Assembly: GCA_934149075.1 (NCBI GenBank)
Contig: CAKPDR010000001.1
Location: forward strand, 1,916 to 65,915
Length of the DNA stretch: 64,000 nucleotides
Direction of reading: 5' to 3'
Origin: an uncultured Clostridia bacterium
GTDB taxonomy: Bacteria > Bacillota > Clostridia > TANB77 > CAG-508
In this document: positions 26,593 to 54,697 of the stretch, one piece after another
How positions within the stretch are numbered: position 1 is the stretch's first letter
Layout: each line of letters begins with the position of its first letter
Notes under the pieces: generated by a model
What the model saw: only the letters and a program-made list of their open reading frames with translations
What the model was told of the DNA's origin: nothing
Databases searched by the model: none
Position numbers and translations under genes: made by a program

Positions 26593-26596
26593 TATG

Positions 26597-33999: not shown

Positions 34000-34063
34000 T
34001 CAACCTCACTCGCAAATTACTATTTCTAGCTTAGATTATATCACTTTATATTTTATTATACAA

Positions 34064-36483: not shown

Positions 36484-38289
36484 CTATCTATATAAATTCC
36501 ATATTCCCCATAGTTTTATATCTTCAATTTCTTTTTGTTCTCTTGCTTGTTCTCGTTTTAATCTTAGTTGCCTATTTTCTTCTTGATTTCCCATTCCAAA
36601 CAATTTATTAAATCTCCACTTAGAAATATCAGGCAATTTTGTTATTATAGGATATAATCCTGCTTGAATGACTAAAACATAAGGTCTTTCTATTCTTAAA
36701 ATTTCATCTTCTGTCAGTAATGCTCTGCTTATTAAGTTCATTGATTCTGAATTACTACCACTTTGATATTTTGTATAGCTACTAGATCTGCTATAACTAG
36801 AAGTAGTATAAGTTCCTAATTTTTTTGAAATTATACTTGCTGTTTCATTACTTGCTGTTTTTAAATATATCCAAGTTTGGCAGTTATCTCTAATATTTTC
36901 TGCGACTTCTTTTCCATACTTGTTATCCAGTTGTGAAAAAGATTGAAGAAATAAATTAAATCTTATTTTTCTCCCTCCTGCAACAGTAAGCATATTGCTA
37001 AAAGCAGGTATTGTTGTAAAATTTCCAAACTCATCTAATATGTAATTTACTCTTGTTTTTAATTCTCCTCCTCGTTCATCGGCACTTTCTACAAGTGATA
37101 CATAATTTTGATAAATAAATAAACTTGCTAAAGAATAATAAGTCGTTTTTTCATCAGGAAGAATAATATAAGTAACTGTTTTTTCTTCTCCTGCTTGTTT
37201 TAAACTAAAATCACTTTTGCAAGTCATTCCGTATATGCTTTTACTTGTAAATAATCTTAATGTTGTTAAAGCAGATGTAAAAAAAGAGCCTCTAGTTTTT
37301 TCAGGTGCAATCCTTGCAATATTAAATATTGTACTTGAAGGATGATCAGGTGGTAAATTTTCAATATATTTATTTATCGGCATTGTCTGTCCAACTGTTC
37401 TACACATTTCTGAAATAAAAGAATACACATTTGTTAAATTTTGATATTCAGAATGCTCTTTATTGTCAAAAACAACACTCATTATTGCTCCTGCAATAAC
37501 TGACATCTCTCCATCTCTCCATATTTTTTCCATTTTTGTATCTTCATTTCCTACTAAACTTTGAGTAATATCCCAAGTGTACTCTTCAGCTTTTCTAAAA
37601 TCTCCGTTATTTACTGCATCTATAACAGGTTGTAAAAAATTATATCTTGTACTTTTTGTTGGATTTTTAAAATCTAAGGTTATTATTTTATAACCTTGTT
37701 TTTTCAAAAACTCTGAAGTGTAATGATAAATTTCAGCTTTAGGATCTGAAATAATCATACTCTCTCCTGCTAATCCTAAGTTTCCAACTGTCTGTAATAC
37801 TATACTTCTTGTTTTACCACTTCTTGTAGCTCCTACAACTAAACTATGAATATTATCATCAATGTAATAAATCCTTTCTTGCTTTTTGTCCTTTTCATAT
37901 CCTACAATAATTCCACCTGAATTGAATTCCTCTGTATTTTCCTTTGATAGTGAATTACATTTAAAAAATTTTTTAAATTCTTTTTTACTCAGCCATCTTG
38001 CCGTTCCATGTTGCCCTTGTCCCATAACTTCTGGAGTCTTTAATTTATCTGTTATATTTACTATTCCACTTTCAAAAACATTTTTACTTCCAAATCCGAA
38101 AAGAATTATAATTGTTGTTTCAATTAGCATATAGATAAGAAAAAATAGTAGTAAAATCTGTTTATTTACTACTATTTGTGAAAATTCCATATTAGAAAGT
38201 TTCAAATGAATTATCGTACTCAAAACAATACTAACAGAAATATTTAATATAGATAAAAAAGCTATTATTCCGATTTTTCTTTTTCTCAT
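36484..38289 (-). CDS. virD4: type IV coupling protein (VirD4/TraG/TraD family)
   Basis: 601 aa with N-terminal TMs and Walker A SLVVGATRSGKTRS. Confidence 0.85.
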   Translation of the reverse strand: MRKRKIGIIAFLSILNISVSIVLSTIIHLKLSNMEFSQIVVNKQILLLFFLIYMLIETTIIILFGFGSKNVFESGIVNITDKLKTPEVMGQGQHGTARWLSKKEFKKFFKCNSLSKENTEEFNSGGIIVGYEKDKKQERIYYIDDNIHSLVVGATRSGKTRSIVLQTVGNLGLAGESMIISDPKAEIYHYTSEFLKKQGYKIITLDFKNPTKSTRYNFLQPVIDAVNNGDFRKAEEYTWDITQSLVGNEDTKMEKIWRDGEMSVIAGAIMSVVFDNKEHSEYQNLTNVYSFISEMCRTVGQTMPINKYIENLPPDHPSSTIFNIARIAPEKTRGSFFTSALTTLRLFTSKSIYGMTCKSDFSLKQAGEEKTVTYIILPDEKTTYYSLASLFIYQNYVSLVESADERGGELKTRVNYILDEFGNFTTIPAFSNMLTVAGGRKIRFNLFLQSFSQLDNKYGKEVAENIRDNCQTWIYLKTASNETASIISKKLGTYTTSSYSRSSSYTKYQSGSNSESMNLISRALLTEDEILRIERPYVLVIQAGLYPIITKLPDISKWRFNKLFGMGNQEENRQLRLKREQAREQKEIEDIKLWGIWNLYR

Positions 38290-38645
38290 TCTAATTCTTC
38301 TCCTTCTTCCATTTGATTTTCTTGTTCTAATTGAAATTTTTTAGTATATTCTTCTATTTGCTCTTTGGTTAAATCTTTAAAATCCTGATTTTTCTTATCA
38401 TTACCTGTAACAATAAAAGTTCCCCTTATATTTAAACCATCAAGAGTTCTGTTTATTGGTAGTAATTTTTTATAAGCTTCTTCATCAAAAATTATTAAAA
38501 CATCTTTATATTTAATAACATCTATATATTCATTACCTACAATTTTTCTTAATGTTTCAAGTCTGTTTGGAATTCTTTTTAATTCAGGATTTTTTTCATT
38601 TTCTATTATAAGAACATACATATTTTGCTTTTCAATTACTACCAC
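38286..38645 (-). CDS. hypothetical protein (119 aa)
   Basis: ORF coupled to virD4. Confidence 0.4.
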   Translation of the reverse strand: MVVIEKQNMYVLIIENEKNPELKRIPNRLETLRKIVGNEYIDVIKYKDVLIIFDEEAYKKLLPINRTLDGLNIRGTFIVTGNDKKNQDFKDLTKEQIEEYTKKFQLEQENQMEEGEELE

Positions 38646-38648: not shown

Positions 38649-39596
38649 CTACATTTCCATATCTTCTAATTCTTCTAAGCTATAATGCATTTCCATTGCA
38701 TATTGTTTTTTAGCACTTTCATTTAATTCATAATGATGTGTAATATCTTTTTCATGTTCTTTTCTTTGAAACTGTTTGATTAATTCAGCCAAAGATAAAG
38801 ACATACTCCTATATTGAGTATGCCTTTCGTATTTTTTTACACCTTTAATTCTTGCTTTATATTTTTTTTTAAAATATGCTTCCATATTTTCTTTTAAATA
38901 CTTTTCATTATGCAATTTTCTATCTCTGCATTTATAACCTTCTGAAGTTGTATATGTAATATTTTTTCTTTCTTTAATCCATGTAACTTTATATCCCATT
39001 TCGTTCATCACTTTAAAAAATTCAAATTTATTATTTGATTTTTCCATAGCAATATCAATACTTTTTTCTAACTTTTCTTTCCAACTAATCCCCTTTTGTT
39101 TTGCTTTATATTCATTAATTCTTATATCATCTACACTTGATTTTTCTCTTGTTATAGATAATCCTTGCTTAATGCATAATTTATTAGAATATGCTTTTAA
39201 GCTTTCTAAATCTTTATTAGAAAATTGTATCTTTTTACCTGTTTCAAAATTTACTGTATTCACAACAAAGTGTGAATGTATATGTTCCTTATCTTGATGA
39301 GTTGCTACAACAACTTGATAACCTTTAAAATATTTTTCTGCTATTTTCATTGCTATTTCGTGTGCTGTTTCATAACTCAACTCATCATTTGGACTAAATG
39401 CTTGAACAAAATGTAATTTTTCTCTACCTTTTGTTTTACCATACATATTTTTTATAGCCATCATTTCTTCATAAGCATTTTCTACCATGCAATCTTTTCC
39501 TGAAATAAACTTGTTATTAGTTTTCTCTTCTTTGCAAATATAATTTAAAGTTTTCTTTAATCCGACCTTGTTATTAATGAATTTAATGATTGCCAT
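38649..39596 (-). CDS. relaxase/mobilization nuclease (MobA/VirD2-like)
   Basis: 315 aa with the His triad HQDKEHIHSHFVVN and a relaxase-type N-terminus. Confidence 0.8.
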   Translation of the reverse strand: MAIIKFINNKVGLKKTLNYICKEEKTNNKFISGKDCMVENAYEEMMAIKNMYGKTKGREKLHFVQAFSPNDELSYETAHEIAMKIAEKYFKGYQVVVATHQDKEHIHSHFVVNTVNFETGKKIQFSNKDLESLKAYSNKLCIKQGLSITREKSSVDDIRINEYKAKQKGISWKEKLEKSIDIAMEKSNNKFEFFKVMNEMGYKVTWIKERKNITYTTSEGYKCRDRKLHNEKYLKENMEAYFKKKYKARIKGVKKYERHTQYRSMSLSLAELIKQFQRKEHEKDITHHYELNESAKKQYAMEMHYSLEELEDMEM

Positions 39597-39865
39597 ATTT
39601 TACTTAACTCCTTTTTTACTCCTCCCAATTCAACACAAGTTATAACTCTTCCATTTGCTAGTTTTGTTAATTGATTTACATTATTTCCTAGCTTTCTTAA
39701 TTGAATTACTAATTTATCAAGATCATTGATAACTACAATTTCTTTTTTAGTAGCACTTTTAATTAGATACTCTGAAATTGTTGTATTAGCTTTTACACTA
39801 TTGTTTATAATCATTGTTTTTTCTTCAGGAGTTAATCTAATTTCAATTCTTTCAGTTTTTTTCAA
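39557..39865 (-). CDS. mobC: MobC-family relaxosome accessory protein
   Basis: 102 aa, LRKLGNNVNQLTKLANG. Confidence 0.7.
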   Translation of the reverse strand: MKKTERIEIRLTPEEKTMIINNSVKANTTISEYLIKSATKKEIVVINDLDKLVIQLRKLGNNVNQLTKLANGRVITCVELGGVKKELSKIWQSLNSLITRSD

Positions 39866-39974
39866 TTACTCTCCTCTCCACCTAAAAATTTTATGAAGGG
39901 TTTGGGGACACCTCCCCTTAAATAAGAAAAGTTATACTTTTCGTTCTATTTGTACTTACAAATAGGAATCTTGC
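39866..39974. promoter_or_regulatory. candidate oriT
   Basis: Intergenic region upstream of mobC with the hairpin ggggacacctcccc at 39904-39917 and the near-palindrome aaaagttatactttt. Confidence 0.4.
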
Positions 39975-40862
39975 TTAACTTATCGCTTCGCTACTAAAGT
40001 ATTCATCTAATAATTTGATTACTAAATCAGAAAATTCTTTATCGTTTTTAAATCTATCTTTGTAGATTTTCATTGCTCTTTTTTCTATTTTTCCTGTAAA
40101 CTTTTCTACTTTAATTTTTTCGTTTTTGATAATTTTAAGCATAATTTCATAACTAATATTATTTTTCTTTAATCTAATTTTCTGTGCTTGTGCAACAGTT
40201 ATTTTTATTTGTTCATCTTCAATAACTTGATTAACAATTTCCTGTTCTTCTATATTTAAGTATGATATTTCTACTCCTGCTTTTATAGGTATTTGCTCTT
40301 TATTTACTTTTTCTTGTAAAGGTTTAATTAGTTCCGTTAGTCTTATATAGTTATAAATTTGTGATTTTCCTTCTTCATTCCACTCGGTGGAATTATCGTT
40401 AAATTCGTTTATATTACTGCTTTTTTGTCTATTTTTTATAATATTATTTCTTTGCTTATAAGCATAGCCTTTTTCAACAGGTAGTATTTTTTCTCTATTG
40501 TTTAGATTTGTGTCTAACATTATTAATGTTGCTTTTTCATCATCACAATCCACAATCTGAGATGGAATTGTGGAAAATCCTAGTTCTTTTGCACATTCTG
40601 TTCTATTATGTCCTGATATAATTTCGTATTTGTCATTTTCTATTTTTCTAACTATAATAGGTACTAGAATTCCATTTTCTTTCATGCTTTCTTTCATATC
40701 TTCTTTTTTATTTTCATCATACATTGAAAAAGGTTGCCCTTTTCTAAAAGCAACCAACTTACTTATTTCTATATTAGTTATATTTTTATTTTCTTCCCTT
40801 TCATTTTTTTCAGATATTTTATCAACTACAAATTTTGATCTTATTTCATCAATACTACTCAA
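39975..40862 (-). CDS. ParB-like nuclease/partition domain protein
   Basis: 295 aa, LVPIIVRKIENDKYEIISGHNRTECAKELG. Confidence 0.7.
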   Translation of the reverse strand: MSSIDEIRSKFVVDKISEKNEREENKNITNIEISKLVAFRKGQPFSMYDENKKEDMKESMKENGILVPIIVRKIENDKYEIISGHNRTECAKELGFSTIPSQIVDCDDEKATLIMLDTNLNNREKILPVEKGYAYKQRNNIIKNRQKSSNINEFNDNSTEWNEEGKSQIYNYIRLTELIKPLQEKVNKEQIPIKAGVEISYLNIEEQEIVNQVIEDEQIKITVAQAQKIRLKKNNISYEIMLKIIKNEKIKVEKFTGKIEKRAMKIYKDRFKNDKEFSDLVIKLLDEYFSSEAIS

Positions 40863-40864
40863 AT

Positions 40865-41284
40865 TTACATCTCCATTTCTTCTTCATATTCTAATTCTTT
40901 ATTAAATTTTTCTATTTTATTTATTGATTCAAATAAATCTGTATCTCTATCTATTTCTATATATGGTATTTTATCTTTTAAATTGTTATATATAAAAAGA
41001 GAGCCATTTTTAGGATCTAGAACTACTGCATAATATGATACATTTTTATTTTTTAAATCTTGACTAGTTTCTTTCCATACAAACTCATCATCTTCAGTTA
41101 TTCCTATTTTTGAAAAATAAATCATATTGTTTATTTTCTTTAATATTGTTGGATTTCTAAATATATTATCTTCAGGTAATTCAGAATAATTATTTACAAT
41201 ATAATTATATAAATAACTATCATCTGAAAAAGCTTTTAACATATCTAGTTTATTACTCTCTATGAATAATCTTATATTTTTCAA
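40865..41284 (-). CDS. hypothetical protein (139 aa)
   Basis: ORF in the leading region. Confidence 0.4.
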   Translation of the reverse strand: MKNIRLFIESNKLDMLKAFSDDSYLYNYIVNNYSELPEDNIFRNPTILKKINNMIYFSKIGITEDDEFVWKETSQDLKNKNVSYYAVVLDPKNGSLFIYNNLKDKIPYIEIDRDTDLFESINKIEKFNKELEYEEEMEM

Positions 41285-41330
41285 TTCATCCCTCCTTTGT
41301 ATAAAAAAGAGCTAGGTTTTACTCTAACCC

Positions 41331-41624
41331 TTAGCTTACACATTCTACTATTAAATTAACTCCATCTTTAAAGCCTTGCTTGTAATATTTTTCTAAACTA
41401 GCACAATATCTTTTTGAAATATCTTCAAGTGCATAATCAAGCATCTCTTCTATTTTATTTCTTAGTCTATCTTCTTTAACTTGCTCTATTAATTTTCTTA
41501 ATTTATCTTCATTTCCATCTCGTTTAATTTCTAAAATTACATTTTTTTCTTCATCAGAAACATTCGCAAGTACTCTTTGCTCTCTGTCAAAAAAAATAGA
41601 TTCTAATATTGTTTCTTCTCCCAT
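41331..41624 (-). CDS. hypothetical protein (97 aa)
   Basis: ORF in the leading region. Confidence 0.4.
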   Translation of the reverse strand: MGEETILESIFFDREQRVLANVSDEEKNVILEIKRDGNEDKLRKLIEQVKEDRLRNKIEEMLDYALEDISKRYCASLEKYYKQGFKDGVNLIVECVS

Positions 41625-41684
41625 ATCTTATACCTCCTGTATAAGATTATACTATGGTGTTTTTATATATCCAAACCTTTTATT

Positions 41685-42260
41685 TTAAAATTCCATATCA
41701 TTTTCTTCAGCCATTTCTTTATTCTCTAATTTATAATTTAGTTCTTTTATTTCATTTTTTAATTTAGTATTTTCTTCTACTAATAATGCTTTTTCTAATA
41801 AATTTATATCTTCATTTTTGAATTCTTTATCTATATTTTTAGTTTTATTCATACTTATATAACTTGTTTCTGTAACAATAACATGATCTAATAGTTCAAT
41901 ATTAAATGTTTTCAATAATTTATTAGTAATATTAGTTATATGTATATCTTCTTTACTAGGATGTAGAGAATTTGAAGGATGATTGTGTACTAAGATAACT
42001 CTATCACTCGTGCTCATCAATGCAGTTCTTATTATATTTTTTGTATCTACTAAAATTCCACAACTTGATCCAACACCTAAAAGACTTATCTTTCTGATAT
42101 TGTTACTTTTATCTAAACCTATAAATATCAAATGCTCTTGAATTGCATCTTTTATTTCTTGAACTTCCTCTAAATCATAAATATCATTTGTATTGCTTAC
42201 TTTTATATCCTTTATAATTTCCTTTTTGGGTTTTTTATCTATTTCTAATTCTATACTCAT
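41685..42260 (-). CDS. radC: RadC-like JAB/MPN domain protein
   Basis: 191 aa, ILVHNHPSNSLHPSKEDIHITNI. Confidence 0.8.
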   Translation of the reverse strand: MSIELEIDKKPKKEIIKDIKVSNTNDIYDLEEVQEIKDAIQEHLIFIGLDKSNNIRKISLLGVGSSCGILVDTKNIIRTALMSTSDRVILVHNHPSNSLHPSKEDIHITNITNKLLKTFNIELLDHVIVTETSYISMNKTKNIDKEFKNEDINLLEKALLVEENTKLKNEIKELNYKLENKEMAEENDMEF

Positions 42261-42272
42261 TATTCCTCCAAA

Positions 42273-43235
42273 TTAAAATTCCATATCATCTTCCTCAATT
42301 TTTTCTATTTCACTAACTTCAATACTTCTATCTTTCAAATCTTGTTTTATTTCTTCTATTTGTTCTTCACTAACAGATTTAAAACCTGCATTTTCAAAGT
42401 CATCTCCTACAACAAAACAATTTCCTACAATATAATCATATCCAAAATCGAGATTAGGTTTTTGATTAAGAATCTTCCCTTCTTCATTACAAACTAATAA
42501 TAAATCTTCTTTATAAGGTACTACTTCAATTAATCCTCCAACTAACTTTTGCTTAGCTTCTAATGTGTCATCTATTTTCATTACTATTGGATCTTTTCCT
42601 ACTTGTTTGTATATAACTTTTAACTTTTTCTCTGTTTCTTCTTCCATATCATACATTTCTATTATTTCTTGTAGTGAATATTTATTTAAATCTATACTTT
42701 CACTTTTATCTATATAACCGTCATCTAATAATTCAACATATCCACTCATTTCAGCATCTCTACCATAACTTCCAAAGTCAAAATATCCTTCAATTCCATG
42801 TTGTTTTAATACATCTAATAAACCTGTATCTTCAGCAAATCTATATCCATATTTTTCTTCTGCTGACATAGTCCAACTATCTATTTGATAAGAATAATAA
42901 GGTAGCTCATCTTCTTGAATAATTATATTCATTAATTCTTCAATGCTTAAATCTCCTTCTGAATTTGCATATCCTTCTATTGCTTCCATATTATAGATAT
43001 TTTCTGATACTTTTGCTAATAAATTAAGCATCTTTATGCTTTCATATTCATTAACTTTACATGGTAAATCTGTTTCAAAATCATTTATCATATATTCTTC
43101 GTATTCATCATTAAGTCCAACTACTTCTTTTAAGAATTCATCAATTTCTTCTTTTTCTTTTGGTAATTCTAGCCATCCTCCTTTTAATTCTCCTTCATTA
43201 TATTTTTCTAAATTACCAACCCATATATTAAGCAT
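42273..43235 (-). CDS. ardA: antirestriction protein ArdA with a C-terminal extension
   Basis: 320 aa. The N-terminus, MLNIWVGNLEKYNEGELKGGWLELP, is typical of ArdA, and the protein is very acidic. Confidence 0.85.
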   Translation of the reverse strand: MLNIWVGNLEKYNEGELKGGWLELPKEKEEIDEFLKEVVGLNDEYEEYMINDFETDLPCKVNEYESIKMLNLLAKVSENIYNMEAIEGYANSEGDLSIEELMNIIIQEDELPYYSYQIDSWTMSAEEKYGYRFAEDTGLLDVLKQHGIEGYFDFGSYGRDAEMSGYVELLDDGYIDKSESIDLNKYSLQEIIEMYDMEEETEKKLKVIYKQVGKDPIVMKIDDTLEAKQKLVGGLIEVVPYKEDLLLVCNEEGKILNQKPNLDFGYDYIVGNCFVVGDDFENAGFKSVSEEQIEEIKQDLKDRSIEVSEIEKIEEDDMEF

Positions 43236-43296
43236 ATTTTCTCTCCTTCCTTATACCAAAAAGAGCTAGTAATTTTATGTTTTACTAACTCTCCTC

Positions 43297-43572
43297 TTAT
43301 ATTTTTACTAAAACTTCCTTCATTAGAATTTCATCAACTAAACCATCAATCATTTGTTGATATTTCGCTATAACATACATTTCACTTGTTTTAGGTTCTT
43401 TATATTCTGTTTTTATTTCATTTTCTAATTTTTCTTTTAATTTTAAAATATATTGTTCTCTTTCATATATTTTCACATTTAATTCGCCTGTTAATTCTAA
43501 TTCTTGTTTTCTGTATGGATAATTTTTCTCCATATTACTTAAAATCATCTGCCCATATTTTCCAAAAATCAT
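43297..43572 (-). CDS. hypothetical protein (91 aa)
   Basis: ORF. Confidence 0.4.
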   Translation of the reverse strand: MIFGKYGQMILSNMEKNYPYRKQELELTGELNVKIYEREQYILKLKEKLENEIKTEYKEPKTSEMYVIAKYQQMIDGLVDEILMKEVLVKI

Positions 43573-43781
43573 TGTTTTCTACCTTCTTTCATTTATATTG
43601 TACTTTACCAATATCAGGTTTTCCAAACCCAAAAAGAAAAGAGATACAAAGTTTTTCTCTGCATCTCTACAAATATTTCATTATACATATTATAACACCT
43701 ATTTTTAGCTTTTCAAGGTGGTCTTTTTTTGGTACTCTTTTTTGTGTGTACTTTTTTTGTTACTATTTTAGTTAAACTTTT

Positions 43782-44498
43782 TTATTTTAGTAATTCATTT
43801 AAGTTAGTTATTATTGTCCTTCTAATATCTTCACTTGTTAATCTTTCAAATATATAATTTTCTTTTCCATTTTCTACTTCTTTTATTTTATTTCTTATTT
43901 TATCTTTCTTTAACCAACACTCACTTAAATCAGCCATTTCTTTTTTTAATTCTTTGTTCTCTTTCAATAATTTTCCTCTATCACTATTCATAAATTCAAA
44001 AATTTCTTGATCTTTATATTGTATTTCTAATTTCAATTCATCAGTTTCATCTTCTAAAGTTTCTAATCTTTGAAATTCTTTAACTAATGTTGCTGTTGGA
44101 ATATTCAAATCTAATATAGACTTTAACATATTTTCTAATTCAATTATTTTTTCATCTTTCTCTTTTAGTTGATATTCAAGTTGTTTAGTATATTCATCAA
44201 CTCTATCTTCATTTATTAAATAAGTTTTTTCTCTCTCAAATTTTATTCCATTTATTTCGCAACTTTTGTCCCAATTAGGATTTTCATATTGCTTACTTTC
44301 CTCATTAAAATTTATTCTATGTTGTAATAATAATATTCTTAATAAAAATTCTGTATCGCGATTTACTTCATCAAATGCTGTTTCTGTGGCTATATATACT
44401 AAATCCTTATACATATTTTTCAAAACATCTATACTAAGATTTTCTATTGGTTGTTCCTTATAATTATTGTAATTTTTCTTAAAATCATCCCAAAGCAT
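43782..44498 (-). CDS. hypothetical coiled-coil protein (238 aa)
   Basis: ORF. Confidence 0.4.
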   Translation of the reverse strand: MLWDDFKKNYNNYKEQPIENLSIDVLKNMYKDLVYIATETAFDEVNRDTEFLLRILLLQHRINFNEESKQYENPNWDKSCEINGIKFEREKTYLINEDRVDEYTKQLEYQLKEKDEKIIELENMLKSILDLNIPTATLVKEFQRLETLEDETDELKLEIQYKDQEIFEFMNSDRGKLLKENKELKKEMADLSECWLKKDKIRNKIKEVENGKENYIFERLTSEDIRRTIITNLNELLK

Positions 44499-44515
44499 AT
44501 TATTAGACTCCTTCC

Positions 44516-45259
44516 TTATTTAATATTTTTCTCATAATACTCAAAGATATCATCAATTTTTTTACCACCGAATGATCTTTTATAGTCTTCTTGTTCATTT
44601 TCTTTCCACCATTCAAATTTTTCTTTAATTTTATTTCTTATCTCTGTAGTATCAATATCAGAATTCTTTTCTATTGCAAATAAAACTTTTATAATATCTC
44701 CTCCACAAATAAAAAAATCAAAATTTCTTACTTCATCATTACCATATTTTCCTGTGATTCCTTCTATTTTCTTATCATAAGAAATATATAAATAATCATC
44801 TTTAAATAAATGATTTTCTTTTATATATGTATAATATAAATCTTTTACTCCTGATGTTCTTAGATATCCAGTCAAATACCATATTGTTCTACTTCTAATT
44901 TTAATATAATCTTTTGGTAAATCTATTTCTTTTATTTTAGTAATATATTTTCCTTCCGAATACAAAAATTCATTTTCTTGATCTTCTAACTTCCATGTTT
45001 TTCTATCTAACCTTCCTCTTGTATACCAATTAGACATTATTTTTTTATTAATTATTTCTTCACAATAATCAAATAAATATTTAAACTGTTTTCCATCGTT
45101 TCTGTCAATCCATTCTATATTTTCTTTTTCTCCTCCTACTCTGCAATAATCATCTCCTCCATCTATATAACAAGATCCACATTTACACATTTGAAAATCA
45201 TGTCTATATTTACTTTGTAATATATCTCCACATTTTCTACATCTGATTCTTTCTCCCAT
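44516..45259 (-). CDS. hypothetical protein with an N-terminal zinc ribbon
   Basis: CRKCGD...CKCGSC...C. Confidence 0.4.
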   Translation of the reverse strand: MGERIRCRKCGDILQSKYRHDFQMCKCGSCYIDGGDDYCRVGGEKENIEWIDRNDGKQFKYLFDYCEEIINKKIMSNWYTRGRLDRKTWKLEDQENEFLYSEGKYITKIKEIDLPKDYIKIRSRTIWYLTGYLRTSGVKDLYYTYIKENHLFKDDYLYISYDKKIEGITGKYGNDEVRNFDFFICGGDIIKVLFAIEKNSDIDTTEIRNKIKEKFEWWKENEQEDYKRSFGGKKIDDIFEYYEKNIK

Positions 45260-45272
45260 TTATATCCTCCAT

Positions 45273-45614
45273 CTATATTTTTAACATATCCATTGATTCA
45301 AAATAAATATAAGCTTCCTTAAATCCTAGTTTAAAAGCCTCTTTTAATTCAATCAAATTAATCTCTTCTTGTAACTTTAGTATTTCTATAATTGCATTTT
45401 CTTCTTCATCATTTAATTTAGTTTTCTCTCCATCTTCTAATAAAGTTACTACATTAGGATATTTATTTTTGATTTCACAAATAGCCTTCTCTATTTCTTT
45501 ATATTCATTTCTTAATCTTATTCTACCTACTCTTTGATTTTCAAAATAATCTGCGAAGTAATCAGACCACTCACATGTATATTGATTTAAAAGTTCTTCG
45601 TTCAAATTTTCCAA
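45273..45614 (-). CDS. hypothetical protein (113 aa)
   Basis: ORF. Confidence 0.4.
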   Translation of the reverse strand: MENLNEELLNQYTCEWSDYFADYFENQRVGRIRLRNEYKEIEKAICEIKNKYPNVVTLLEDGEKTKLNDEEENAIIEILKLQEEINLIELKEAFKLGFKEAYIYFESMDMLKI

Positions 45615-45851
45615 CTTTTTTCCTCCCTTTCTTTATTTTCGATCATTATATAGTGAGCATATATCAGATTCCAAACCCTTTTTATAAAAAAATTTAAAAA
45701 ATAACCTAGTACATAAAATTTGTACTAAGTTACCATCTACAGCTTGTAATTTGTGTTTTACTTATTCTTTAATATTTCTAAATAATTATCTGCTTATTCT
45801 CTTGTTTTAAAAATAATGATATTTTTATTCATTTTGTATTTTTCTAGCAAT

Positions 45852-46691
45852 TCATATAATTGAACCATTTTCTTTAAGAGCATCCCATAAATCATCATCT
45901 TCAAATTCGTTATCTGGATCAAAATGTTTTAATAATATATCTAAATTTTTCCTTACAAAATCACATATTTTATCAAAATCTTCTTTTGAAAGCTTATTTT
46001 TCCCTATAATTACTCTTGGATTTTCTTCTAATGTAATGCTAAATGTATCTCTATATTTATTTTCAGTATTTGCAACACGAATTCTAGGTAAATCATTATG
46101 AACACGGACATTACTACTTTTAGACCTATTCTTTTCTGGATATATGTTAGTTTTTAATCCTGTTATACGTTCAGTAAGTGCTGTAGAATACCATCCCCAA
46201 TTATCACAATCATCAAAAGTTGCTTCCTCAAAAGTACTGATATTTAATGGCGTTTTTCCAACTTTAATTTCATTCCAATAATCTCTTTTTGATATTTCTA
46301 AATCTCCTTTTACAATTCTACCTAATAAATCATATTCTGAATCTTCTTCAATTACTCCATTATATTTTTCTATGTCTTTTTCAAAGTATTCAAATGTAAA
46401 CAATTCTTTATTTTTCCATTGATTGTTACTCATCTTATAGAAGGAAATTAAGGCATATTTATTTTCAAAATATTTTTCTCCATTAAATTTTCTTGGTAGC
46501 CATCGCACAACATATATTCTATCTGTATTGTCGTCTATATAACCTTCACCTTTTTCTAAATTATGCTTTAACTTTACAATATCTCCAATTTTAAATTTTT
46601 CACTTGCCTCTTCTTCTAAATCTTCTGGATATAATTCAATACTATGTTTTGTATCTGTCAAACTATTTTTATATCGATATTCATACATCAT
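45852..46691 (-). CDS. hypothetical protein (279 aa)
   Basis: ORF. Confidence 0.4.
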   Translation of the reverse strand: MMYEYRYKNSLTDTKHSIELYPEDLEEEASEKFKIGDIVKLKHNLEKGEGYIDDNTDRIYVVRWLPRKFNGEKYFENKYALISFYKMSNNQWKNKELFTFEYFEKDIEKYNGVIEEDSEYDLLGRIVKGDLEISKRDYWNEIKVGKTPLNISTFEEATFDDCDNWGWYSTALTERITGLKTNIYPEKNRSKSSNVRVHNDLPRIRVANTENKYRDTFSITLEENPRVIIGKNKLSKEDFDKICDFVRKNLDILLKHFDPDNEFEDDDLWDALKENGSII

Positions 46692-46809
46692 ATATAAAAT
46701 ATTTCCTGCATAATTTAAATGATATACCTTATGTGTAGGTTCTAATTTATTATATTCTTCTTTATGATAAGCATCATAATCAATATCAAAGTTTTCTGCA
46801 TATTCTAAA

Positions 46810-47043
46810 TTATCTATTCCGTATTATATTAAAAATATAATCAACTTGTTTATTTTTTAAAATCTCTTCAAATGTTTTATTTTGATTTGCTTCTATATCT
46901 TTCATGGTTGTTTTTAAGTGTTTCAATCCCTCTTTTCTAGCTTGTTCAAAACTGCTATATACATTGGAATAGTAACTTGTATCAAATACAATATCACAAT
47001 CTAATAAAGTAAATACGCTTACTTCTACTAAATATAATTTCAT
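46810..47043 (-). CDS. hypothetical protein (77 aa)
   Basis: ORF. Confidence 0.35.
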   Translation of the reverse strand: MKLYLVEVSVFTLLDCDIVFDTSYYSNVYSSFEQARKEGLKHLKTTMKDIEANQNKTFEEILKNKQVDYIFNIIRNR

Positions 47044-47082
47044 TTTTTTGTTTCTCCCTATTTTTTTAGTATGATAACAATA

Positions 47083-47520
47083 TTAATCCATCAATATTAT
47101 AATTCTTATATCTTTATTTTCTTTTAAATCTCTACTTTTGGCAATAATCTCTTTCATTGAATTTTCTACAGTATCATCTATATAAATTTCTTTTTCTGAA
47201 AGTGTTTCTATTATTTTTGTAAGTCCATCCCATTCTTCACTATTTATCTGTCCACTTTCTATTTTGCTATAATCAATATTTGAATCATTCGTTAAGATTT
47301 TATTTATAATTTGCTTTTTGTTTATCTTTGAACTAAAAATTGCAATTGGATTATTTATTTTTTGTAACACATTAGAAATGACATCCAATGCTACATCTTT
47401 TGTATAATCCTTTAAGTTTAATATAACCATTTCTTCTTTATCTGACTTTTTTATACTATCATCTATGTTTGAGATTTCCATTAAAATTTTGTTAACCTCA
47501 CTAATTTCTTTTATTTTCAT
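47083..47520 (-). CDS. hypothetical protein (145 aa)
   Basis: ORF. Confidence 0.4.
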   Translation of the reverse strand: MKIKEISEVNKILMEISNIDDSIKKSDKEEMVILNLKDYTKDVALDVISNVLQKINNPIAIFSSKINKKQIINKILTNDSNIDYSKIESGQINSEEWDGLTKIIETLSEKEIYIDDTVENSMKEIIAKSRDLKENKDIRIIILMD

Positions 47521-47538
47521 TATAATTTCTCTCCTTCT

Positions 47539-48417
47539 CTATATGCTTGTTTCTATTTTAATAACTTCCCATTTTCTATTAAATATCACTTTACAATAAG
47601 CATATTCATTAGAAAAATAATGTTTTTCTATTATTATTTGTAAATCTCCAAATTGATTTGGAGATTTTATTGGTGATTCTTTTTTTAATGCTTCTATTGT
47701 TTCTTCAATTGTCATATAACCATTTCTGTTTAATATATTTAACTTATCTTCTGAAAAATATATGCTATAAAAATAGACTGAATTAGGACTAGCAAAAGAG
47801 TCAAAGTCAAGCATTTCGTTATTATCTTTCATAAACTCTTCTACTGCTTTCTTTTCTTTCATGAAATCCACTTTATTTGATTGTTCTTTTTCTCTTTTTA
47901 GAAGATATTTATCAGAAGCAAGTTCAAATTCCGAATCTATAATCGCTATTTCAAAGGACATATCCATCATCAAATAAATTGTATCTTCTGTCATTCTTTT
48001 ACGAATGTACACATCTGTATTTGGTGTATCTATATCTGTATATTTGTAAAAAACATGATATTTATCATATTGCTTTAAATCTTGGTTCAATAAAAATAGG
48101 TCTTGAATACATATATGTTGTTTATTATCTATTAATTTCGTAATCGTTTCTCTTTCTTCTATTGGTATTCTGCCTTTTGGATCATAATCATATTCTAATA
48201 ACTTATTATCACAATATTCTTTATTTAATTCTAATCTAAATTTTAATACACTCTTTTCATTAAACCTACCACCTGTCAAAATAGTATCTATTTCAAATTT
48301 TCTGATTGCTTTTCTTTCTATAATTGCTGTGTCTAAATTTGAAAAACCTAAAGCCAAATATTCAAACTTCTTATTTTTCAATATATCTTGACTTATTTTT
48401 TGTATTACATAACTCAT
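47539..48417 (-). CDS. hypothetical protein (292 aa)
   Basis: ORF immediately downstream of the AAA+ gene. Confidence 0.4.
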   Translation of the reverse strand: MSYVIQKISQDILKNKKFEYLALGFSNLDTAIIERKAIRKFEIDTILTGGRFNEKSVLKFRLELNKEYCDNKLLEYDYDPKGRIPIEERETITKLIDNKQHICIQDLFLLNQDLKQYDKYHVFYKYTDIDTPNTDVYIRKRMTEDTIYLMMDMSFEIAIIDSEFELASDKYLLKREKEQSNKVDFMKEKKAVEEFMKDNNEMLDFDSFASPNSVYFYSIYFSEDKLNILNRNGYMTIEETIEALKKESPIKSPNQFGDLQIIIEKHYFSNEYAYCKVIFNRKWEVIKIETSI

Positions 48418-48503
48418 CTTATATACATCCCTTTCATATTTTTTTAATTATCTTTAAATCTAGTTAATAATAAGCATTAACTATTAAATAATCAGTCAAG
48501 GTC

Positions 48504-50117
48504 CTAGACGCCGAATCCTATTCTTCTTTTATTTTCTACAGTTTTAATTTTATCTACCACATTTTTTATGTCTTGTGGTATTATTGTATACAAATCATCA
48601 CTATTGTTTTCTTTGATTCGCACAGCTTGTTCAAATTTTATTTTTTCTACTAGATTTCTGACTAAACGACCATTTCCAAAATTTTCTTTTTTTAATTTTA
48701 CTTCGTTTTCAAAATACTGGGTTACAATTTCTTTACAACCTTTTTTTAATTTAAGAAAATCTTCTTTAAGTTGTTTTAAAAATATTTCATATAATTCTTC
48801 TACATTATAATCTGGAAAATCTATAAAAAATTGTATTCTGCTTTTGAAACCTGAATTTGCATTAATCAGTCTTTCCATTTCTTCTGGATAACCTGCTAAT
48901 ATAACACACAAATCTTCTCTATGATTTTCCATTTCTTTTATTAATGTTGCTATACATTCATAGCCATAGTCATTCCTTCGTCCATCTGAGCCTTGTATTA
49001 GTGAATATGCTTCATCTATAAACAATATCCCACCTATTGCTTGCTCAATAACCTTTTTTGTTTTTGCTGCTGTATGTCCTACATATTCACCAATTAAGTC
49101 TTCTCGACAAACTTCTACAAAAATTTTTTTAGTGCTTAATATTTCATTTTCTGCAAATATATCGCCGATTATTCTTGCTACAGTAGATTTTCCTGTACCA
49201 GGATTTCCACTCATACACATGTGTAGCATAGTTCTTCCTTGCCCGCCTCGCTTGCCATCTACTTCAATGTAGCTTAATATTTTCCTTATTTGTTCTTTTA
49301 TATCATTTAATCCAATTAAAGAATTTAATTGGCATAATCCATGTTCGGATTTTTTATCTGTTTTAAGATTATCCCATTTAAACAATATATCGTCTAAATC
49401 AAAACAATCTGTATTTATTTCTTTTAATTCTCGTTTATTGGCTTTAATACAAGCTCTAATAAGTGTTTTATCCAATTCTATCATTGAATTTTTTGCAATA
49501 GATTCTATTATCCAATCTTCTAAATTTATTTTTAAACCATTTTGTTTTGCTACATTGTTTATATATTGTATCTTTTCTTCTTGCGTAGGTTCTATTATAT
49601 TTAGCTCCCAATAAAAGTTTCTTTGTAACATTTCTAGTGTGTTATCTTTATCTCTCTTTGACATTAATTTTGAATCTTTTATTATAACAATAAATATACA
49701 AAATGGATTCTTCTTAATTATTGATTCTAACTTTCTATCAATCTTATTTTCATCATCTATAATATACAGTTTATTTTTCTCAAATTCAGTATTTTTTAAA
49801 GTATATAAATCAGTAATAATTGTTATTCTATTATCTTCTATTATGTTCTCTTTTATCAATATTTTATTAATTATCTCTACTTCTTTTTCATAATCTTTAG
49901 AATCGTTATCGCAGAACAGTATAATATTATTATTTCCTATATTTATCTTATTTTCTTTTTTTAGTCTAATATATTCTACATACTCTTTTAGTTTATTTCT
50001 AAAAAAAGTTACACCATAACACTTATCTAAACTTTTTAAAATATCTTCTGTAGTTTCTTCTTTCTTTATTATGCTATGTTTTTCTAAATTTTCCATTTTA
50101 ATTCCAATTCCCTTCAC
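48504..50117 (-). CDS. AAA+ ATPase of the SpoVK/CbbX type with an unknown N-terminal domain of about 280 aa
   Basis: 537 aa with Walker A MSGNPGTGKSTVAR, Walker B ILFIDEAYSL, and the SpoVK-like context LIGEYVGHTAAKT. Confidence 0.7.
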   Translation of the reverse strand: MKGIGIKMENLEKHSIIKKEETTEDILKSLDKCYGVTFFRNKLKEYVEYIRLKKENKINIGNNNIILFCDNDSKDYEKEVEIINKILIKENIIEDNRITIITDLYTLKNTEFEKNKLYIIDDENKIDRKLESIIKKNPFCIFIVIIKDSKLMSKRDKDNTLEMLQRNFYWELNIIEPTQEEKIQYINNVAKQNGLKINLEDWIIESIAKNSMIELDKTLIRACIKANKRELKEINTDCFDLDDILFKWDNLKTDKKSEHGLCQLNSLIGLNDIKEQIRKILSYIEVDGKRGGQGRTMLHMCMSGNPGTGKSTVARIIGDIFAENEILSTKKIFVEVCREDLIGEYVGHTAAKTKKVIEQAIGGILFIDEAYSLIQGSDGRRNDYGYECIATLIKEMENHREDLCVILAGYPEEMERLINANSGFKSRIQFFIDFPDYNVEELYEIFLKQLKEDFLKLKKGCKEIVTQYFENEVKLKKENFGNGRLVRNLVEKIKFEQAVRIKENNSDDLYTIIPQDIKNVVDKIKTVENKRRIGFGV

Positions 50118-50217
50118 AATTTTAAAAAATCCTATCTACATTATTAGTATATAGGATTTTTTATTCATTGTAAAACATATTGGTCATATTATGTATTTAT
50201 ACTACATTTAATTCTAT

Positions 50218-51195
50218 TTAATATCTTTTTAGTATTTCTTCTAAATTATTTTTTAATTCTTCTCGAATTGATGTTGGTTCTAAAACTTCCACATAATTCA
50301 AATATTGCATAATCCACATTTTTAGTCCTTTAGGACAAACATATAATTTCACTTTAAAATGATTATCATCTATTTTTTGAATTTCTATATTGGTTCCGAA
50401 TTTTTCTATTACAGCATCTAATATTAACATATCACATTTTAACTCTATTACTTCTCTCTCTCCACCAAACATATATACAGAACTTTGTACAAAATCTTTA
50501 ATTGATTGATTAGTTTTAACACTTGGTATTTCAGTTGATTTAATATTTTTAATTCTATCTAATCTAAAATATGATAATTCATTAAATTTTTCGTTATATG
50601 CTATTAAGTAATAAAATTCATTTTCGCAAAGAATAGCATAGGGACTTACTCTTTTTGTTTTTTCTAATTTTAATTTTTTATTTATATCATATTTATAATA
50701 TTCAAATTCAACTTTTGTTTTAGATTTTATACTATATGATAATACTTCTATATTATTTAATACATCTTTGTTTATTGTTTTTATATTTTTGCTGTATACT
50801 TCTATTTTTTCTGTTTTGTTAATGGTTTCTTGTTCATATATGCTTAATAAACCCTTTAATTTTTCTATTATTTCAACTGAAAATGCTTCTTCCATAAATT
50901 TTGAATAATGTAGTAAATCTATCATCATTTTTATTTCACTAAATTCAAAATCTTTTGTTCTTAAATAGTACCCCTGTCTATTTTCTTTAAATGTTTCTAT
51001 ATCTATATCTAATTTCTCTATTAGCACTCTTATGTTTCTTCTTACCGTTCTGTCTTCTATTTCTTCATCAAATTCTTCTTTTACATATTTTATAATATCT
51101 TTTACACTTAAAACATGATCTACATCTGAATACTTCTTTAGAACATCATAAATATAAATTATATTTCCTAAATTTGTATGTAGTTTATCTTTCAT
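50218..51195 (-). CDS. WYL-domain transcriptional regulator (BrxR/CapW-like)
   Basis: 325 aa with an N-terminal wHTH and the WYL core AYNEKFNELSYFRLDRIKNI. Confidence 0.65.
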   Translation of the reverse strand: MKDKLHTNLGNIIYIYDVLKKYSDVDHVLSVKDIIKYVKEEFDEEIEDRTVRRNIRVLIEKLDIDIETFKENRQGYYLRTKDFEFSEIKMMIDLLHYSKFMEEAFSVEIIEKLKGLLSIYEQETINKTEKIEVYSKNIKTINKDVLNNIEVLSYSIKSKTKVEFEYYKYDINKKLKLEKTKRVSPYAILCENEFYYLIAYNEKFNELSYFRLDRIKNIKSTEIPSVKTNQSIKDFVQSSVYMFGGEREVIELKCDMLILDAVIEKFGTNIEIQKIDDNHFKVKLYVCPKGLKMWIMQYLNYVEVLEPTSIREELKNNLEEILKRY

Positions 51196-51238
51196 ATATT
51201 ATTCCTCTTTTATTGTAATTACTATATATTATAATTTT

Positions 51239-52519
51239 CTATTCTTCAAATACAGAATCAATCTTTTTACAGTACTCTTTATCTATACTTTCTAATCTAT
51301 TTATTATCTTTTCTATTGATTGATTTATAAATTTCTCATTCGAAAAATTATATTTTTCTGTATATCTTACTTTTTCATCTTTTTCGTAATCATAAGCACT
51401 TATTCTATCTTCATTATCATTTATTCTATCTTTTGGCATTTTTCCTATATTAATTTCTTTCAATTTTTCTAATTCTTTATTATTAATATTCCCCTCAATA
51501 TGTAATGCTATGCTTAATTCTACATTCTCAAAACCTAATATATTATTTTTTAGGCTAACTTCATAATGTATACCATTAAATAATCCATTTTTATTTTCAT
51601 TTTTCCAAGTAATTCTACCGATTTGAATCAAAGTGTCATTATTTTTTTTATTGATTTCATATCGATTATCTTTATTAAATAAGTTTTCTATTTCTGTTAC
51701 TATTTTTTGAACTAAAATTTTATTATTATTACTATATTGTTCTTCTATAGATGCTATTTCTTTACTATAATTGATATAAGTTTTTATAGCTATATTACTC
51801 AAATCAAATTCTTCTTCTTTCATATAATTTTTCATCATTCTTTCTAACTCCTCTAAATATTTATATTTATACATTTCTTTTTCGTTATAATCATGTTCAT
51901 TTATTTTACATATTTGCATAAATAATTGACTGTATGTAAGTGGTATAAAATTTTCATCGCTAGGTTCTGACTTGTTATAATTTGGTTTTAAATAAATAAA
52001 AATCACATTAATTTTACCAGATGTTAATTCTTTTTCTGTTTCTTTCTTCTTTTTCATTATATACCTATAATAATTTCTTGTTTGTGTTCCGTTTTCCTTT
52101 GAATTTATTTTATTCTCTATTATAATCCAAGTATTTGAATATTTAATTAGCACATCTATTCTTTTATTATCATCAATGACTTTTTCTCTTTCTATACCAA
52201 TAAATTTTTGTTCATTCACTGTATCTTTAAATTCTTTTATGTCATTACTCCATCCTATTTTAATATCTTCATTTTGAACATTACTTTTAGATATGTCTAA
52301 TGAATTTATTAGAGAACAAATAGGCTTGTTTCCCATTCCATTTATTTCCGAATTAAATATAAATGCAAGCCAATCAGATATAAAATTTTCATCATAATGA
52401 CTTTTATTCAAAATGTCAAGAACTGTAATTTCGGAACCTTTTATATCTATTTTTTTCAAATTTTCTATTAGTTCTTCTATACTTTTCATTTTTAACCTTC
52501 TTTCTATTATTATGCACAT
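51239..52519 (-). CDS. PD-(D/E)xK nuclease-like protein (predicted)
   Basis: 426 aa with the core GIEREKVIDDNKRIDVLIKYSNTWIIIENK, which supplies the E, D and ExK residues. Confidence 0.45.
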   Translation of the reverse strand: MCIIIERRLKMKSIEELIENLKKIDIKGSEITVLDILNKSHYDENFISDWLAFIFNSEINGMGNKPICSLINSLDISKSNVQNEDIKIGWSNDIKEFKDTVNEQKFIGIEREKVIDDNKRIDVLIKYSNTWIIIENKINSKENGTQTRNYYRYIMKKKKETEKELTSGKINVIFIYLKPNYNKSEPSDENFIPLTYSQLFMQICKINEHDYNEKEMYKYKYLEELERMMKNYMKEEEFDLSNIAIKTYINYSKEIASIEEQYSNNNKILVQKIVTEIENLFNKDNRYEINKKNNDTLIQIGRITWKNENKNGLFNGIHYEVSLKNNILGFENVELSIALHIEGNINNKELEKLKEINIGKMPKDRINDNEDRISAYDYEKDEKVRYTEKYNFSNEKFINQSIEKIINRLESIDKEYCKKIDSVFEE

Positions 52520-52529
52520 ACTTTTTTGC

Positions 52530-54020: not shown

Positions 54021-54253
54021 TTTATTTCTTTTATTTTATCAAACTTTATATATTCCGTCCACTATTTTGGTCATAAAATGTATCTATACTTTTAAAACCA
54101 CATTTATTTTTCCTTTTGCATATTATTACATGTTCTCTATAATTATATTTTATTATTTTGGAATGTATTTATTTGAAAAAGATTTATTTATATTTTCAAA
54201 TTTTAGATATTCATCTACAAATTACTATCTTGTATTTCGATTATATCATATTT

Positions 54254-54697
54254 TCAAATATTGAGTATACTTTTAGCTATTAAATTATTCAAAGTAGCAA
54301 TTATTCCTATTTCAAAATAAATATCATTTATATAAGCTCTTACTGTCGACTTTGAAACATATAATTCATCTGCAATAATATCTTCAGTAATATTACCAAA
54401 AAACTTATATTCAACTATTTTTAGTTTAGTTTTATCGCATTTTCTAAAATCTTGAAGCACATTATCTATTAACTCTTTCCATTTTTTATATTCATTTATT
54501 TTGCAATCTATGTTGATATTTTTTATACCTTGTGATTCTACTGCTCTACTAATTTTGTTTTTACTTCTTATTGAGGAATTAATATCTCTTCCGATTATTG
54601 TCTCTTTTTCAAGCTCTAACTCATTTATTAATCTATCATATATAGGGTATTCATATAATTTTTTTCTAATAATCTTTTTTACCTTTTTAGTAATCAC
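54254..54697 (-). CDS. ArpU/RinA-like sigma-related transcriptional regulator
   Basis: 147 aa with a C-terminal HTH, ELYVSKSTVRAYINDIY. Confidence 0.45.
   Translation of the reverse strand: MITKKVKKIIRKKLYEYPIYDRLINELELEKETIIGRDINSSIRSKNKISRAVESQGIKNINIDCKINEYKKWKELIDNVLQDFRKCDKTKLKIVEYKFFGNITEDIIADELYVSKSTVRAYINDIYFEIGIIATLNNLIAKSILNI

Follow-up and report, generated by a model that had tools for sequence, protein, structure and literature searches.

Does the run of genes beside the transfer genes of a mobile element from an uncultured Clostridia bacterium form an anti-defence island, and would it be the first DNA to reach a recipient cell? The question is raised by a 64,000-nucleotide window (the whole stretch of DNA analysed here, from contig CAKPDR010000001.1), in which a first-pass annotation had marked positions 40865 to 48417 as the leading region of an integrative and conjugative element (ICE), packed with ArdA, RadC, ParB-like and about ten ORFan genes and forming a candidate anti-defence island. 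This block consists of twelve minus-strand open reading frames (ORFs), most of them with a GGAGG-type ribosome-binding site (RBS) and an acidic isoelectric point (pI) of the product. We put the probability at roughly 65% that the interval 39.9-45.7 kb is the leading (establishment) module, proximal to the origin of transfer (oriT), of a 47.4-kb ICE with a MOBP-like relaxase. By sequence and predicted structure, its ArdA appears to be a genuine DNA-mimic inhibitor of type I restriction, and this is the only anti-defence role that is supported. An anti-defence role for the other eight backbone genes is a reasonable hypothesis, with partition, regulation or DNA processing equally open.

The window is low in GC (~25%), has almost all of its genes on the minus strand, and had its gene content identified by Pfam and PADLOC scans. 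The ICE spans positions 9297-56717 and is bounded by a 15-nt direct repeat, CTCATAACCCGAAGG. Homology to related loci (designated here by L numbers) stops at 56717-56723, and two diverged relatives, L015 and L016, are located at tRNA-Met. Integrase, flanking attachment (att) repeats, relaxase, coupling protein and type IV secretion system (T4SS) all fall inside this one bounded element, with chromosomal genes, mfd and its neighbors, on its left. The T4SS genes encode an M23 peptidase, VirB4, TrbL_4, a pilin-like protein, and VirD4, and from left to right a SpaA/TED adhesin gene lies between the type I restriction-modification (R-M) system and IetS/IetA. The relaxase, T4SS, IetAS, and type I R-M genes previously assigned to a single element are therefore all present on it, as are MobC/NikA, VirD4, TrbL, VirB4, and the integrase. 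The relaxase matches PF03432 with 124.8 bits; the motif HQDKEHIHSH was read from its translation, and the histidines are invariant in the homologue alignment. The plasmid relatives closest to it are typed MOBP. As a measure of the element's spread, 11 species-level genomes among gut metagenome-assembled genomes carry a relaxase with 95-97% identity to this one, and the same element was also found in many metagenome contigs. Judged from these matches, the ICE is widespread in human-gut Clostridia and circulates in several gut lineages, including bins labelled Bacilli and Anaeroplasma. A megablast search of 38.6-50.2 kb against PLSDB plasmids gave zero matches.

The gap between mobC and the ParB-like gene had been proposed to hold oriT, and its sequence agrees with that placement. 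Folded as single-stranded DNA it forms three hairpins (z of -3.1), and 0 of 200 shuffled sequences were as stable. The plus strand carries a 9-bp inverted repeat (39946-39965) and, one base further on, the core AATCTTGC at 39967-39974. MOBP relaxases cut (C/T)ATCCTG|(C/T) just 3' of an inverted repeat (PMC3772185); the core matches this consensus at 6 of 8 positions, the repeat ends 1 nt before the core, and the predicted nick lies 8 nt from the repeat. The string G-AATCTTGC-TTA is invariant in L015, L018, L025, and L027 (a set with relaxase identities of 97, 64, 60, and 50%, given by descending value and not in the order of the loci), and the stem of the repeat carries compensatory changes, CTATTTGTA/TACAAATAG being replaced by CCATTTG../..CAAATGG or ..TTTGTG/CACAAA.. 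in relatives. In L015, repeat and core are kept despite overlapping the divergent 3' end of the ParB gene. The two other hairpins of the region are not conserved in relatives. The same layout of repeat and then core, on the strand antisense to mobC, occurs in plasmids of C. perfringens (assigned to MOBP by MOB-suite) and C. beijerinckii and in metagenomic relatives at 39-51% identity, with the cores AAACTTGC and GATCTCGC.

The transferred strand (T-strand) of characterized MOBP, MOBF, and MOBQ systems carries the repeat on the 5' side of nic. Since repeat and core here are on the plus strand, the plus strand would be the T-strand, the predicted nick would fall at G39973|C39974, and the ParB/ArdA side would enter first. 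We infer that this polarity, which agrees with the first-pass annotation in having the genes to the right of oriT enter ahead of the rest, is likely right. In the mechanism we propose, the relaxase would nick the plus strand at AATCTTG|C (39973|39974), 8 nt 3' of the conserved hairpin, and the plus strand would pass into the recipient 5' end first. The genes would then enter in the order ParB/Noc-like, orf139, orf97, RadC, ArdA-DUF3846, orf91, orf238, DUF7695, and DUF6664. All ORFs in 39975-54020 are on the minus strand, so the transferred strand would be their template, provided that the nick prediction holds.

Alignment with the loci of relatives shows that the block is not one unit. Homology in the backbone runs from ~34.0 kb to 45.73-45.77 kb and resumes at 54.24 kb, and this jump identifies 45.77-54.24 kb as a cargo slot. 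The block is made up of a conserved mosaic backbone (40865-45730) and part of a strain-specific cargo slot (45.73-54.24 kb), which is flanked by the promoter of the DUF6664 gene and by a small protein gene at 54254-54697. The right boundary at 48417 is thus arbitrary; it cuts through a cargo module and splits orf292 from its AAA partner. The backbone set in the block comprises orf139, orf97, RadC, ArdA-DUF3846, orf91, orf238, DUF7695, and DUF6664. Its proteins are 91-100% identical among close relatives, yet the set is mosaic: L008 is without RadC; L002, L004, L006, L010, and L018-20 have an insert after RadC that encodes a 206-aa DUF1281_C protein; five small genes including one for an HTH_17 protein replace orf238 and part of DUF7695 in the L002 group; and in L008, L011, and L015 the DUF7695 zinc ribbon continues into a metallophosphoesterase. 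The expected conservation in related ICEs holds for the backbone but not for the cargo slot, the content of which is different in every relative. In place of the cargo found here, L007 has an S11 peptidase and VanZ, L001 and L010 have HEPN and a 355-aa protein, the L002 group has a DnaB_2/DnaD-like protein and a 271-aa protein, and L015-17 have TetR, GNAT, and radical SAM genes. Because of their location in the slot, the last four ORFs of the block (orf279, orf77, DnaB_C, and orf292), which had been counted among the leading-region genes, belong to the accessory cargo.

Within the backbone, the assignment of ArdA draws on several scores. The protein matches PF07275 with an E value of 4e-30 and 105.9 bits (cut-off, 27). 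Its AlphaFold2 (AF2) model, built from 35 homologues and with a predicted local distance difference test (pLDDT) score of ~90 in the ArdA part, matches Tn916 ArdA (2W82) with an E value of 5.5e-8, a TM score of 0.74, and 30% identity. The whole ArdA-DUF3846 protein has a net charge of -50 and a pI of 4.1, and the fusion architecture is found in 526 proteins. When its model was compared with the PDB by Foldseek, the ArdA half alone was matched, the DUF3846 half being without a solved relative; a literature search for DUF3846 returned a single incidental mention. The standalone DUF3846 protein and the C-terminal domain of ArdA are paralogous (40% identity, E value of 6e-11). The same element carries both a type I R-M system (12558-17217) and ArdA (42273-43235), a member of a family of type I inhibitors.

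RadC, another of the classical early-entry genes named at first, is likewise present: it matches PF04002 (E value of 2e-28, 99.1 bits) and PDB 2qlc (E value of 9e-17), and its JAMM motif (HxHx7Sx2D) is intact, reading HNHPSNSLHPSKED in the translation. What had been called a ParB-like nuclease does belong to the ParB family, but its gene lies outside the block, ahead of its start, and the protein resembles Noc/Spo0J with the DNA-binding part included. It scores 64 bits against PF02195 and aligns to Noc (7nfu) over residues 18-230, DNA-binding part included, with an E value of 1e-17. The position of the GERRxRA motif (the CTP-binding arginine patch) reads SGHNRTECA, in which one arginine only is retained. 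These matches argue for a ParB/Noc-type protein more than for a nuclease. As for the roughly ten motif-less ORFans, comparison of the ten ORFs with PHROGs, NCBIfam, and PADLOC returned only a DUF-type phrog and DnaB fragments, and no family of known function. To that extent the description stands, but three of them have Pfam matches (DUF7695, DUF6664, and the degenerate DnaB_C), and the backbone ORFs generally have hundreds of homologues (265 for orf139). The AF2 model of orf139, from a shallow alignment, has a mean pLDDT of 59, too poor for a fold search.

The search for single-strand promoters of the Frpo/ssi type, suggested as a check on the first-pass annotation, gave a negative result. 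With the sequence of the predicted T-strand, the two long intergenic regions are no more stably folded than shuffled versions of themselves (z of -0.36 and -0.95). On the coding strand, the pattern A(A/G)GG(G)TTTGGA-N18/19-TATAAT occurs at three sites in the block (45680, 43631, and 41680). In total, the motif has 7 core matches against 0.9 expected by chance, and it lies upstream of six ICE operons, that of the integrase included (10660-10703, 18385-18426, 23460-23502, and the three leading-region promoters in the table). All three leading-region copies are kept in the diverged relative L015. By these signals, the backbone consists of three to four ordinary transcription units under an element-wide promoter type with an extended -35, and no feature identifies these promoters as single-strand ones. 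The motif may be read with the help of the small proteins encoded at 54254-54697 and 55611-56027; a sigma-like match is found in the former only (extracytoplasmic function [ECF] sigma, sub-threshold, E value of 0.008), not in the latter. One inverted copy of the motif, without a -10, lies inside the oriT region at 39896-39906 on the opposite strand.

Several points weigh against reading 39.9-45.7 kb as a leading module that acts against recipient defences. The nick and the polarity rest on similarity (the 6 of 8 MOBP positions) and on the position that the repeat generally takes, 5' of nic, and in L013 a repeat followed by TATCTTGC is also found on the other strand. The single-strand promoter result is a further point on this side; Frpo/ssi promoters are frequent, not obligatory, in leading regions (Samuel et al. 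2024, PMC11541004). The leading-region genes share their promoter type with the integrase and other ICE genes and bear no mark of specifically early expression. No ORF but ArdA matches an anti-defence family in Pfam, PHROGs, NCBIfam, or PADLOC, and the ParB/Noc-like protein could serve partition or regulation. Were the polarity opposite, with a minus-strand nick near the GGGGA..TCCCC hairpin and AAACCC motif that adjoin mobC, the relaxase and T4SS genes would enter first and the block last. This second motif is common to pBOT3502, where the hairpin is again followed by AAACCC; AAACCC faintly recalls the GCGCCCT cores of MOBQ systems; and the strand of L013 that carries the repeat and TATCTTGC is the sense strand. 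We consider this arrangement unlikely, as the hairpin and motif are absent from L015, L025, and L027 (relaxases 50-64% identical), the very loci in which the plus-strand repeat followed by AATCTTGC is invariant, and as MOBP is the type assigned to the nearest plasmid relaxases. The relaxase operon adjoining oriT is, moreover, the last to enter in F, RP4, and R388, and Samuel et al. 2024 (PMC11541004) took as their working rule that the relaxase side of oriT enters last.

A different doubt concerns function rather than direction. The backbone minus ArdA might be ICE housekeeping, made up of ParB/Noc-type partition or silencing, RadC-type processing, and small regulators. The alignment of the ParB-like protein with Noc/Spo0J through its DNA-binding region would fit such a role, as would the promoter type common to the backbone, the integrase, and other ICE operons, the high conservation of the backbone (91-100% protein identity among close relatives), and the zero anti-defence matches among its unidentified ORFs. 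It is at odds with the gene-level swaps (RadC loss, DUF1281_C gain, and replacement of orf238/DUF7695), which are typical of conflict-driven islands, with the strongly acidic character of most of the products, and with the enrichment of ParB-family, DUF1281/YubB, and ArdA proteins in plasmid leading regions (Samuel et al. 2024 supplement, PMC11541004). We hold it to be possible, at odds somewhat below one in three. The anti-defence reading of the locus keeps its position, orientation, ArdA, and mosaic content, but beyond ArdA it has no family match to point to.

A further feature links the leading module to the relaxase. A C-terminal tail of the form acidic-x-M-E-[F/M] ends exactly 4 of the ~68 sense ORFs in the window and 0 of the 48 antisense ORFs. 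Its bearers are the relaxase, orf139, RadC, and ArdA-DUF3846 (endings are given in the table), the three non-relaxase proteins being encoded within ~3.3 kb of oriT. The ORF at 54741-55520 is listed additionally beside these four. The tail, which is predicted to be disordered, is kept in 120 of 120 ArdA-DUF3846 homologues among the matches listed (58-96% identity), in almost every full-length homologue of the relaxase with 50% identity or more (...EELDEMEF, ...SSEEIEM, and ...WEENEM), and in orf139 homologues; the homologues that keep it number in the hundreds. The DUF1281_C insert, an unrelated protein, ends in ...AEEDDMEF, and in diverged relatives the bearers are a RadC-S6 fusion, a standalone S6-like protein, an LPD28-like 93-aa protein, and a standalone DUF3846. 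Across 42 metagenomic loci, the tail occurs at the relaxase, at positions -2 to -6 on the ParB side, and once at -13, and in 0 of 165 genes downstream of the relaxase. Sharing of the tail is confined to a clade with at least ~48% relaxase identity: in a co-variation test, the relaxase subfamilies ending in WQQTM, GFGMKM, and LGIHMG shared no tail with their neighbors. Two trivial origins were rejected. The tails are not the product of a DNA repeat or cassette junction, since the copies differ by synonymous codons and have unrelated flanks; the synonymous differences also argue for a constraint at the protein level. A by-product of an embedded Shine-Dalgarno sequence fits orf139 alone, in which the tail codons are the ParB RBS, the relaxase, ArdA, and RadC genes having a separate GGAGG or no coupled downstream gene.

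The relaxase is an obligatory T4SS substrate, and a terminal peptide shared with it suggests a common docking partner, either the coupling protein or a DUF3846 adaptor. It is possible that the tail (...EE[DN][DE]ME[F/M]) is a docking or translocation signal and that ArdA and its companions are shipped together with the T-strand, protecting it before any of the incoming genes is expressed. We offer this tentatively, as something that would more probably prove wrong than right. It would account for the restriction of the tail, in the window, to the relaxase and three oriT-proximal proteins, for its conservation in the homologues of ArdA-DUF3846, the relaxase, and orf139, for its presence on the unrelated DUF1281_C insert and on different proteins in diverged relatives, and for its lack in the 165 genes downstream of the relaxase. 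The protein-level constraint and predicted disorder are in keeping with a docking peptide, and the absence of single-strand promoters would fit as well. The gene for the standalone DUF3846 protein, paralogous to the ArdA C-terminal domain, lies between those of the relaxase and VirD4 and overlaps the VirD4 start. A precedent exists in F-like plasmids, whose leading-region proteins are translocated during conjugation (PMC8406263, PMC11288057). Known conjugative translocation signals, however, are mostly positively charged or hydrophobic, the distant relaxase subfamilies (...WQQTM and ...GFGMKM) show no co-variation of the tail with their neighbors, the orf139 tail codons double as the ParB RBS, and the tail could bind another partner.

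Leading-region anti-defence islands have already been described in conjugative plasmids and potential conjugative elements (Samuel et al. 2024, PMC11541004), and the leading module of this ICE is probably a further case. It shares with those islands the location of the genes on the oriT side away from the relaxase, the predicted T-strand as template, ArdA with ParB-family and (in relatives) DUF1281 neighbors, many uncharacterized small genes, and mosaic content. It differs in being chromosomal, in Clostridia, and served by a Firmicutes-type T4SS; in that no Frpo/ssi, SSB, PsiB-type SOS inhibitor, or methyltransferase was found in it; and in having ordinary promoters with an element-specific -35 and a C-terminal tail common to the relaxase and several products. 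With the ArdA of Tn916 (Orf18, 2W82) and that of enterobacterial plasmids, the protein described here has in common the fold, the strong negative charge, and the position near oriT on a conjugative element; the DUF3846 fusion and the conserved acidic ...DMEF tail set it apart. Tn916 ArdA is not known to have either, and the Tn916 relaxase is of the unrelated MOBT type. In layout, the ICE resembles Tn1549-type ICEs of gut Clostridia, which have oriT, mobC, and the relaxase gene in this order and, after them, the genes of the coupling protein and of a Gram-positive T4SS. The relaxase of Tn1549 belongs to the MOBP class, and the Tn1549 oriT reportedly lies in the intergenic region upstream of mobC. 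This likeness is one of layout, not of sequence comparison, and the present element differs in its tyrosine recombinase targeting a tRNA-Met-like site. Co-transfer of proteins by F-like plasmids (ParA, ParB, SSB, and PsiB of pED208, among others; PMC8406263, PMC11288057) shows that leading-region products can travel with the DNA and act before expression; the signals there are heterogeneous and mostly positive or hydrophobic, with no described motif in common with the relaxase, whereas here there is one acidic motif, known from sequence alone.

Islands of this kind are known chiefly from proteobacterial plasmids, and this locus provides a bounded chromosomal example in gut lineages. Its sharply conserved oriT makes the polarity directly testable, and setting apart about nine conserved backbone genes, as candidates for establishment or anti-defence, from swappable cargo narrows the screen. 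What a specialist might find surprising is the shared tail, together with the DUF3846 link. If the tail is indeed a secretion or docking signal, T4SS protein substrates would be predictable from sequence across a large ICE clade, protection of incoming DNA without single-strand promoters would be explained, and conjugative protein transfer would have a sequence-recognizable translocation signal as an alternative to such promoters.

Table 1. Positions of the features discussed (window positions unless preceded by the name of a related locus).
Feature	Position	Strand	Remark
Left att core CTCATAACCCGAAGG	9297-9311	-	ICE left end, adjoins integrase gene
Tyrosine integrase	9414-10610		ICE left end
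Type I R-M system (HsdR + fused HsdM-HsdS)	12558-17217
IetS/IetA	26597-29855
VirD4-type coupling protein (T4SS-DNA_transf, TraG-D_C)	36484-38289	-
Standalone DUF3846 protein	38286-38645	-	end overlaps VirD4 start
Relaxase (PF03432)	38649-39596	-	ends ...EELEDMEM
MobC/NikA-like relaxosome accessory protein	39557-39865	-
Candidate oriT, three hairpins	39866-39974	+	mobC-ParB gap, 109 nt
ParB/Noc-like protein (ParB_N + helix-turn-helix region)	39975-40862	-	predicted first to enter
orf139, conserved	40865-41284	-	translationally coupled to ParB; ends ...YEEEMEM
orf97, conserved small acidic helical protein	41331-41624	-
Promoter, element-specific -35 (AAAGGTTTGGA-N18-TATAAT)	41646-41680	-	upstream of orf97
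RadC-like JAB/JAMM protein	41685-42260	-	ends ...EENDMEF
ArdA antirestriction domain (residues 4-175) + fused DUF3846 (206-300)	42273-43235	-	disordered acidic tail ...EEDDMEF
orf91, conserved	43297-43572	-	weak TnpV-like match under Pfam threshold
Terminator-like hairpin (43640-43668), then element-type promoter (43597-43631)	43597-43668	-	upstream of orf91-ArdA-RadC
orf238, coiled-coil protein	43782-44498	-	replaced or truncated in several relatives
DUF7695 zinc-ribbon protein	44516-45259	-
DUF6664 protein	45273-45614	-	first conserved-backbone gene on that side
Terminator-like hairpin (45700-45734) + element-type promoter (45645-45680)	45645-45734	-	homology to relatives ends 45727-45772
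Variable cargo slot	45775-54239	-	content differs in every relative
orf279	45852-46691		cargo slot
orf77	46810-47043		cargo slot
Degenerate DnaB_C fragment	47083-47520		cargo slot
orf292	47539-48417		cargo slot
AAA/AAA_lid_6 ATPase	48504-50117		cargo slot
WYL/WCX regulator	50218-51195		cargo slot
PDDEXK_4 protein, PADLOC candidate PDC-S26	51239-52519		cargo slot
DUF2779/Cas4-like nuclease	52530-54020		cargo slot
Right ICE end: tRNA-Met-like 3' 48 nt, with second att core (56703-56717)	56673-56722	-
DUF7695 zinc-ribbon-metallophosphoesterase genes	L008:521-1297; L011:1664-2428; L015:8232-9074
Tail-bearing ORFs in relatives	L002:7283-7903; L015:10998-11873, 12689-12970; L027:8333-8665, 10953-11330

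The cargo carried by this copy of the ICE (AAA-orf292, WYL, PD-(D/E)XK, and Cas4-like) looks defence-like or regulatory by its domains, not anti-defence, and the slot may be a defence cassette. Among 1.84 billion representatives, the orf292 protein and its relatives make up 7 clusters, so that it is close to an orphan. The gene of the single full-length relative (62% identity) likewise comes after one for an AAA/AAA_lid_6 protein, which suggests that orf292 belongs with the ATPase just outside the block. A tblastn search of orf292 and orf279 against plasmids gave zero matches. The DnaB_C ORF (145 aa, with a good RBS) covers only the middle of the DnaB C-terminal domain; its P-loop is degenerate, reading KDYTKDV in place of the GKT of DnaB, and the protein stops at the position of Walker B. 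Such an ORF could encode a decoy or an inhibitor, or be the remnant of a gene.

Two domains of the leading regions recur in other combinations. The N terminus of DUF7695 (~60 aa) takes varied C-terminal domains, an unassigned one here and a calcineurin-like metallophosphoesterase elsewhere, and in L007 the zinc ribbon is a separate, 61-aa gene. A ribosomal-protein-S6-like domain is fused to RadC in L015 (10998-11873) and stands alone in L027 (8333-8665), with an acidic tail in both.

Relative to most relatives, the T4SS module has two more insertions, at 26570-29930 and 33122-34019. The first is the IetS/IetA pair, which is absent in L002, L006, and L011 and present at least partly in L008, where the contig ends inside IetS. 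The second holds the gene for a 239-aa AAA_15/AAA_21 (GajA/PtuA-like) ATPase (33280-33999) and is found in none of the relatives compared.

A 23-nt direct repeat, TTTCCCTTTATTTTCCCTTTATG, which is an internal tandem of TTTCCCTTTAT, lies just inside both ICE ends (9374-9396 and 56549-56571). It was first taken as att, but it falls inside the element, whose true ends are the 15-nt repeats; its copies may serve the integrase as arm-binding sites. At the ICE end, the att fragment resembling tRNA-Met has the opposite orientation to the intact tRNA-Met gene at 59343-59418 (region 56722-59418), and methyltransferase-like paralogues flank the ICE at 8278-8856 and 57662-58102, with 74-84% nucleotide identity over parts. 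Together, the inverted fragment and the flanking paralogues suggest that the region was rearranged earlier or that 56.8-59.3 kb is a second small island. A fragment of an RVT_1 reverse-transcriptase domain is encoded by a 231-aa ORF (59964-60659) that lies beyond the ICE and close to the tRNA-Met gene.

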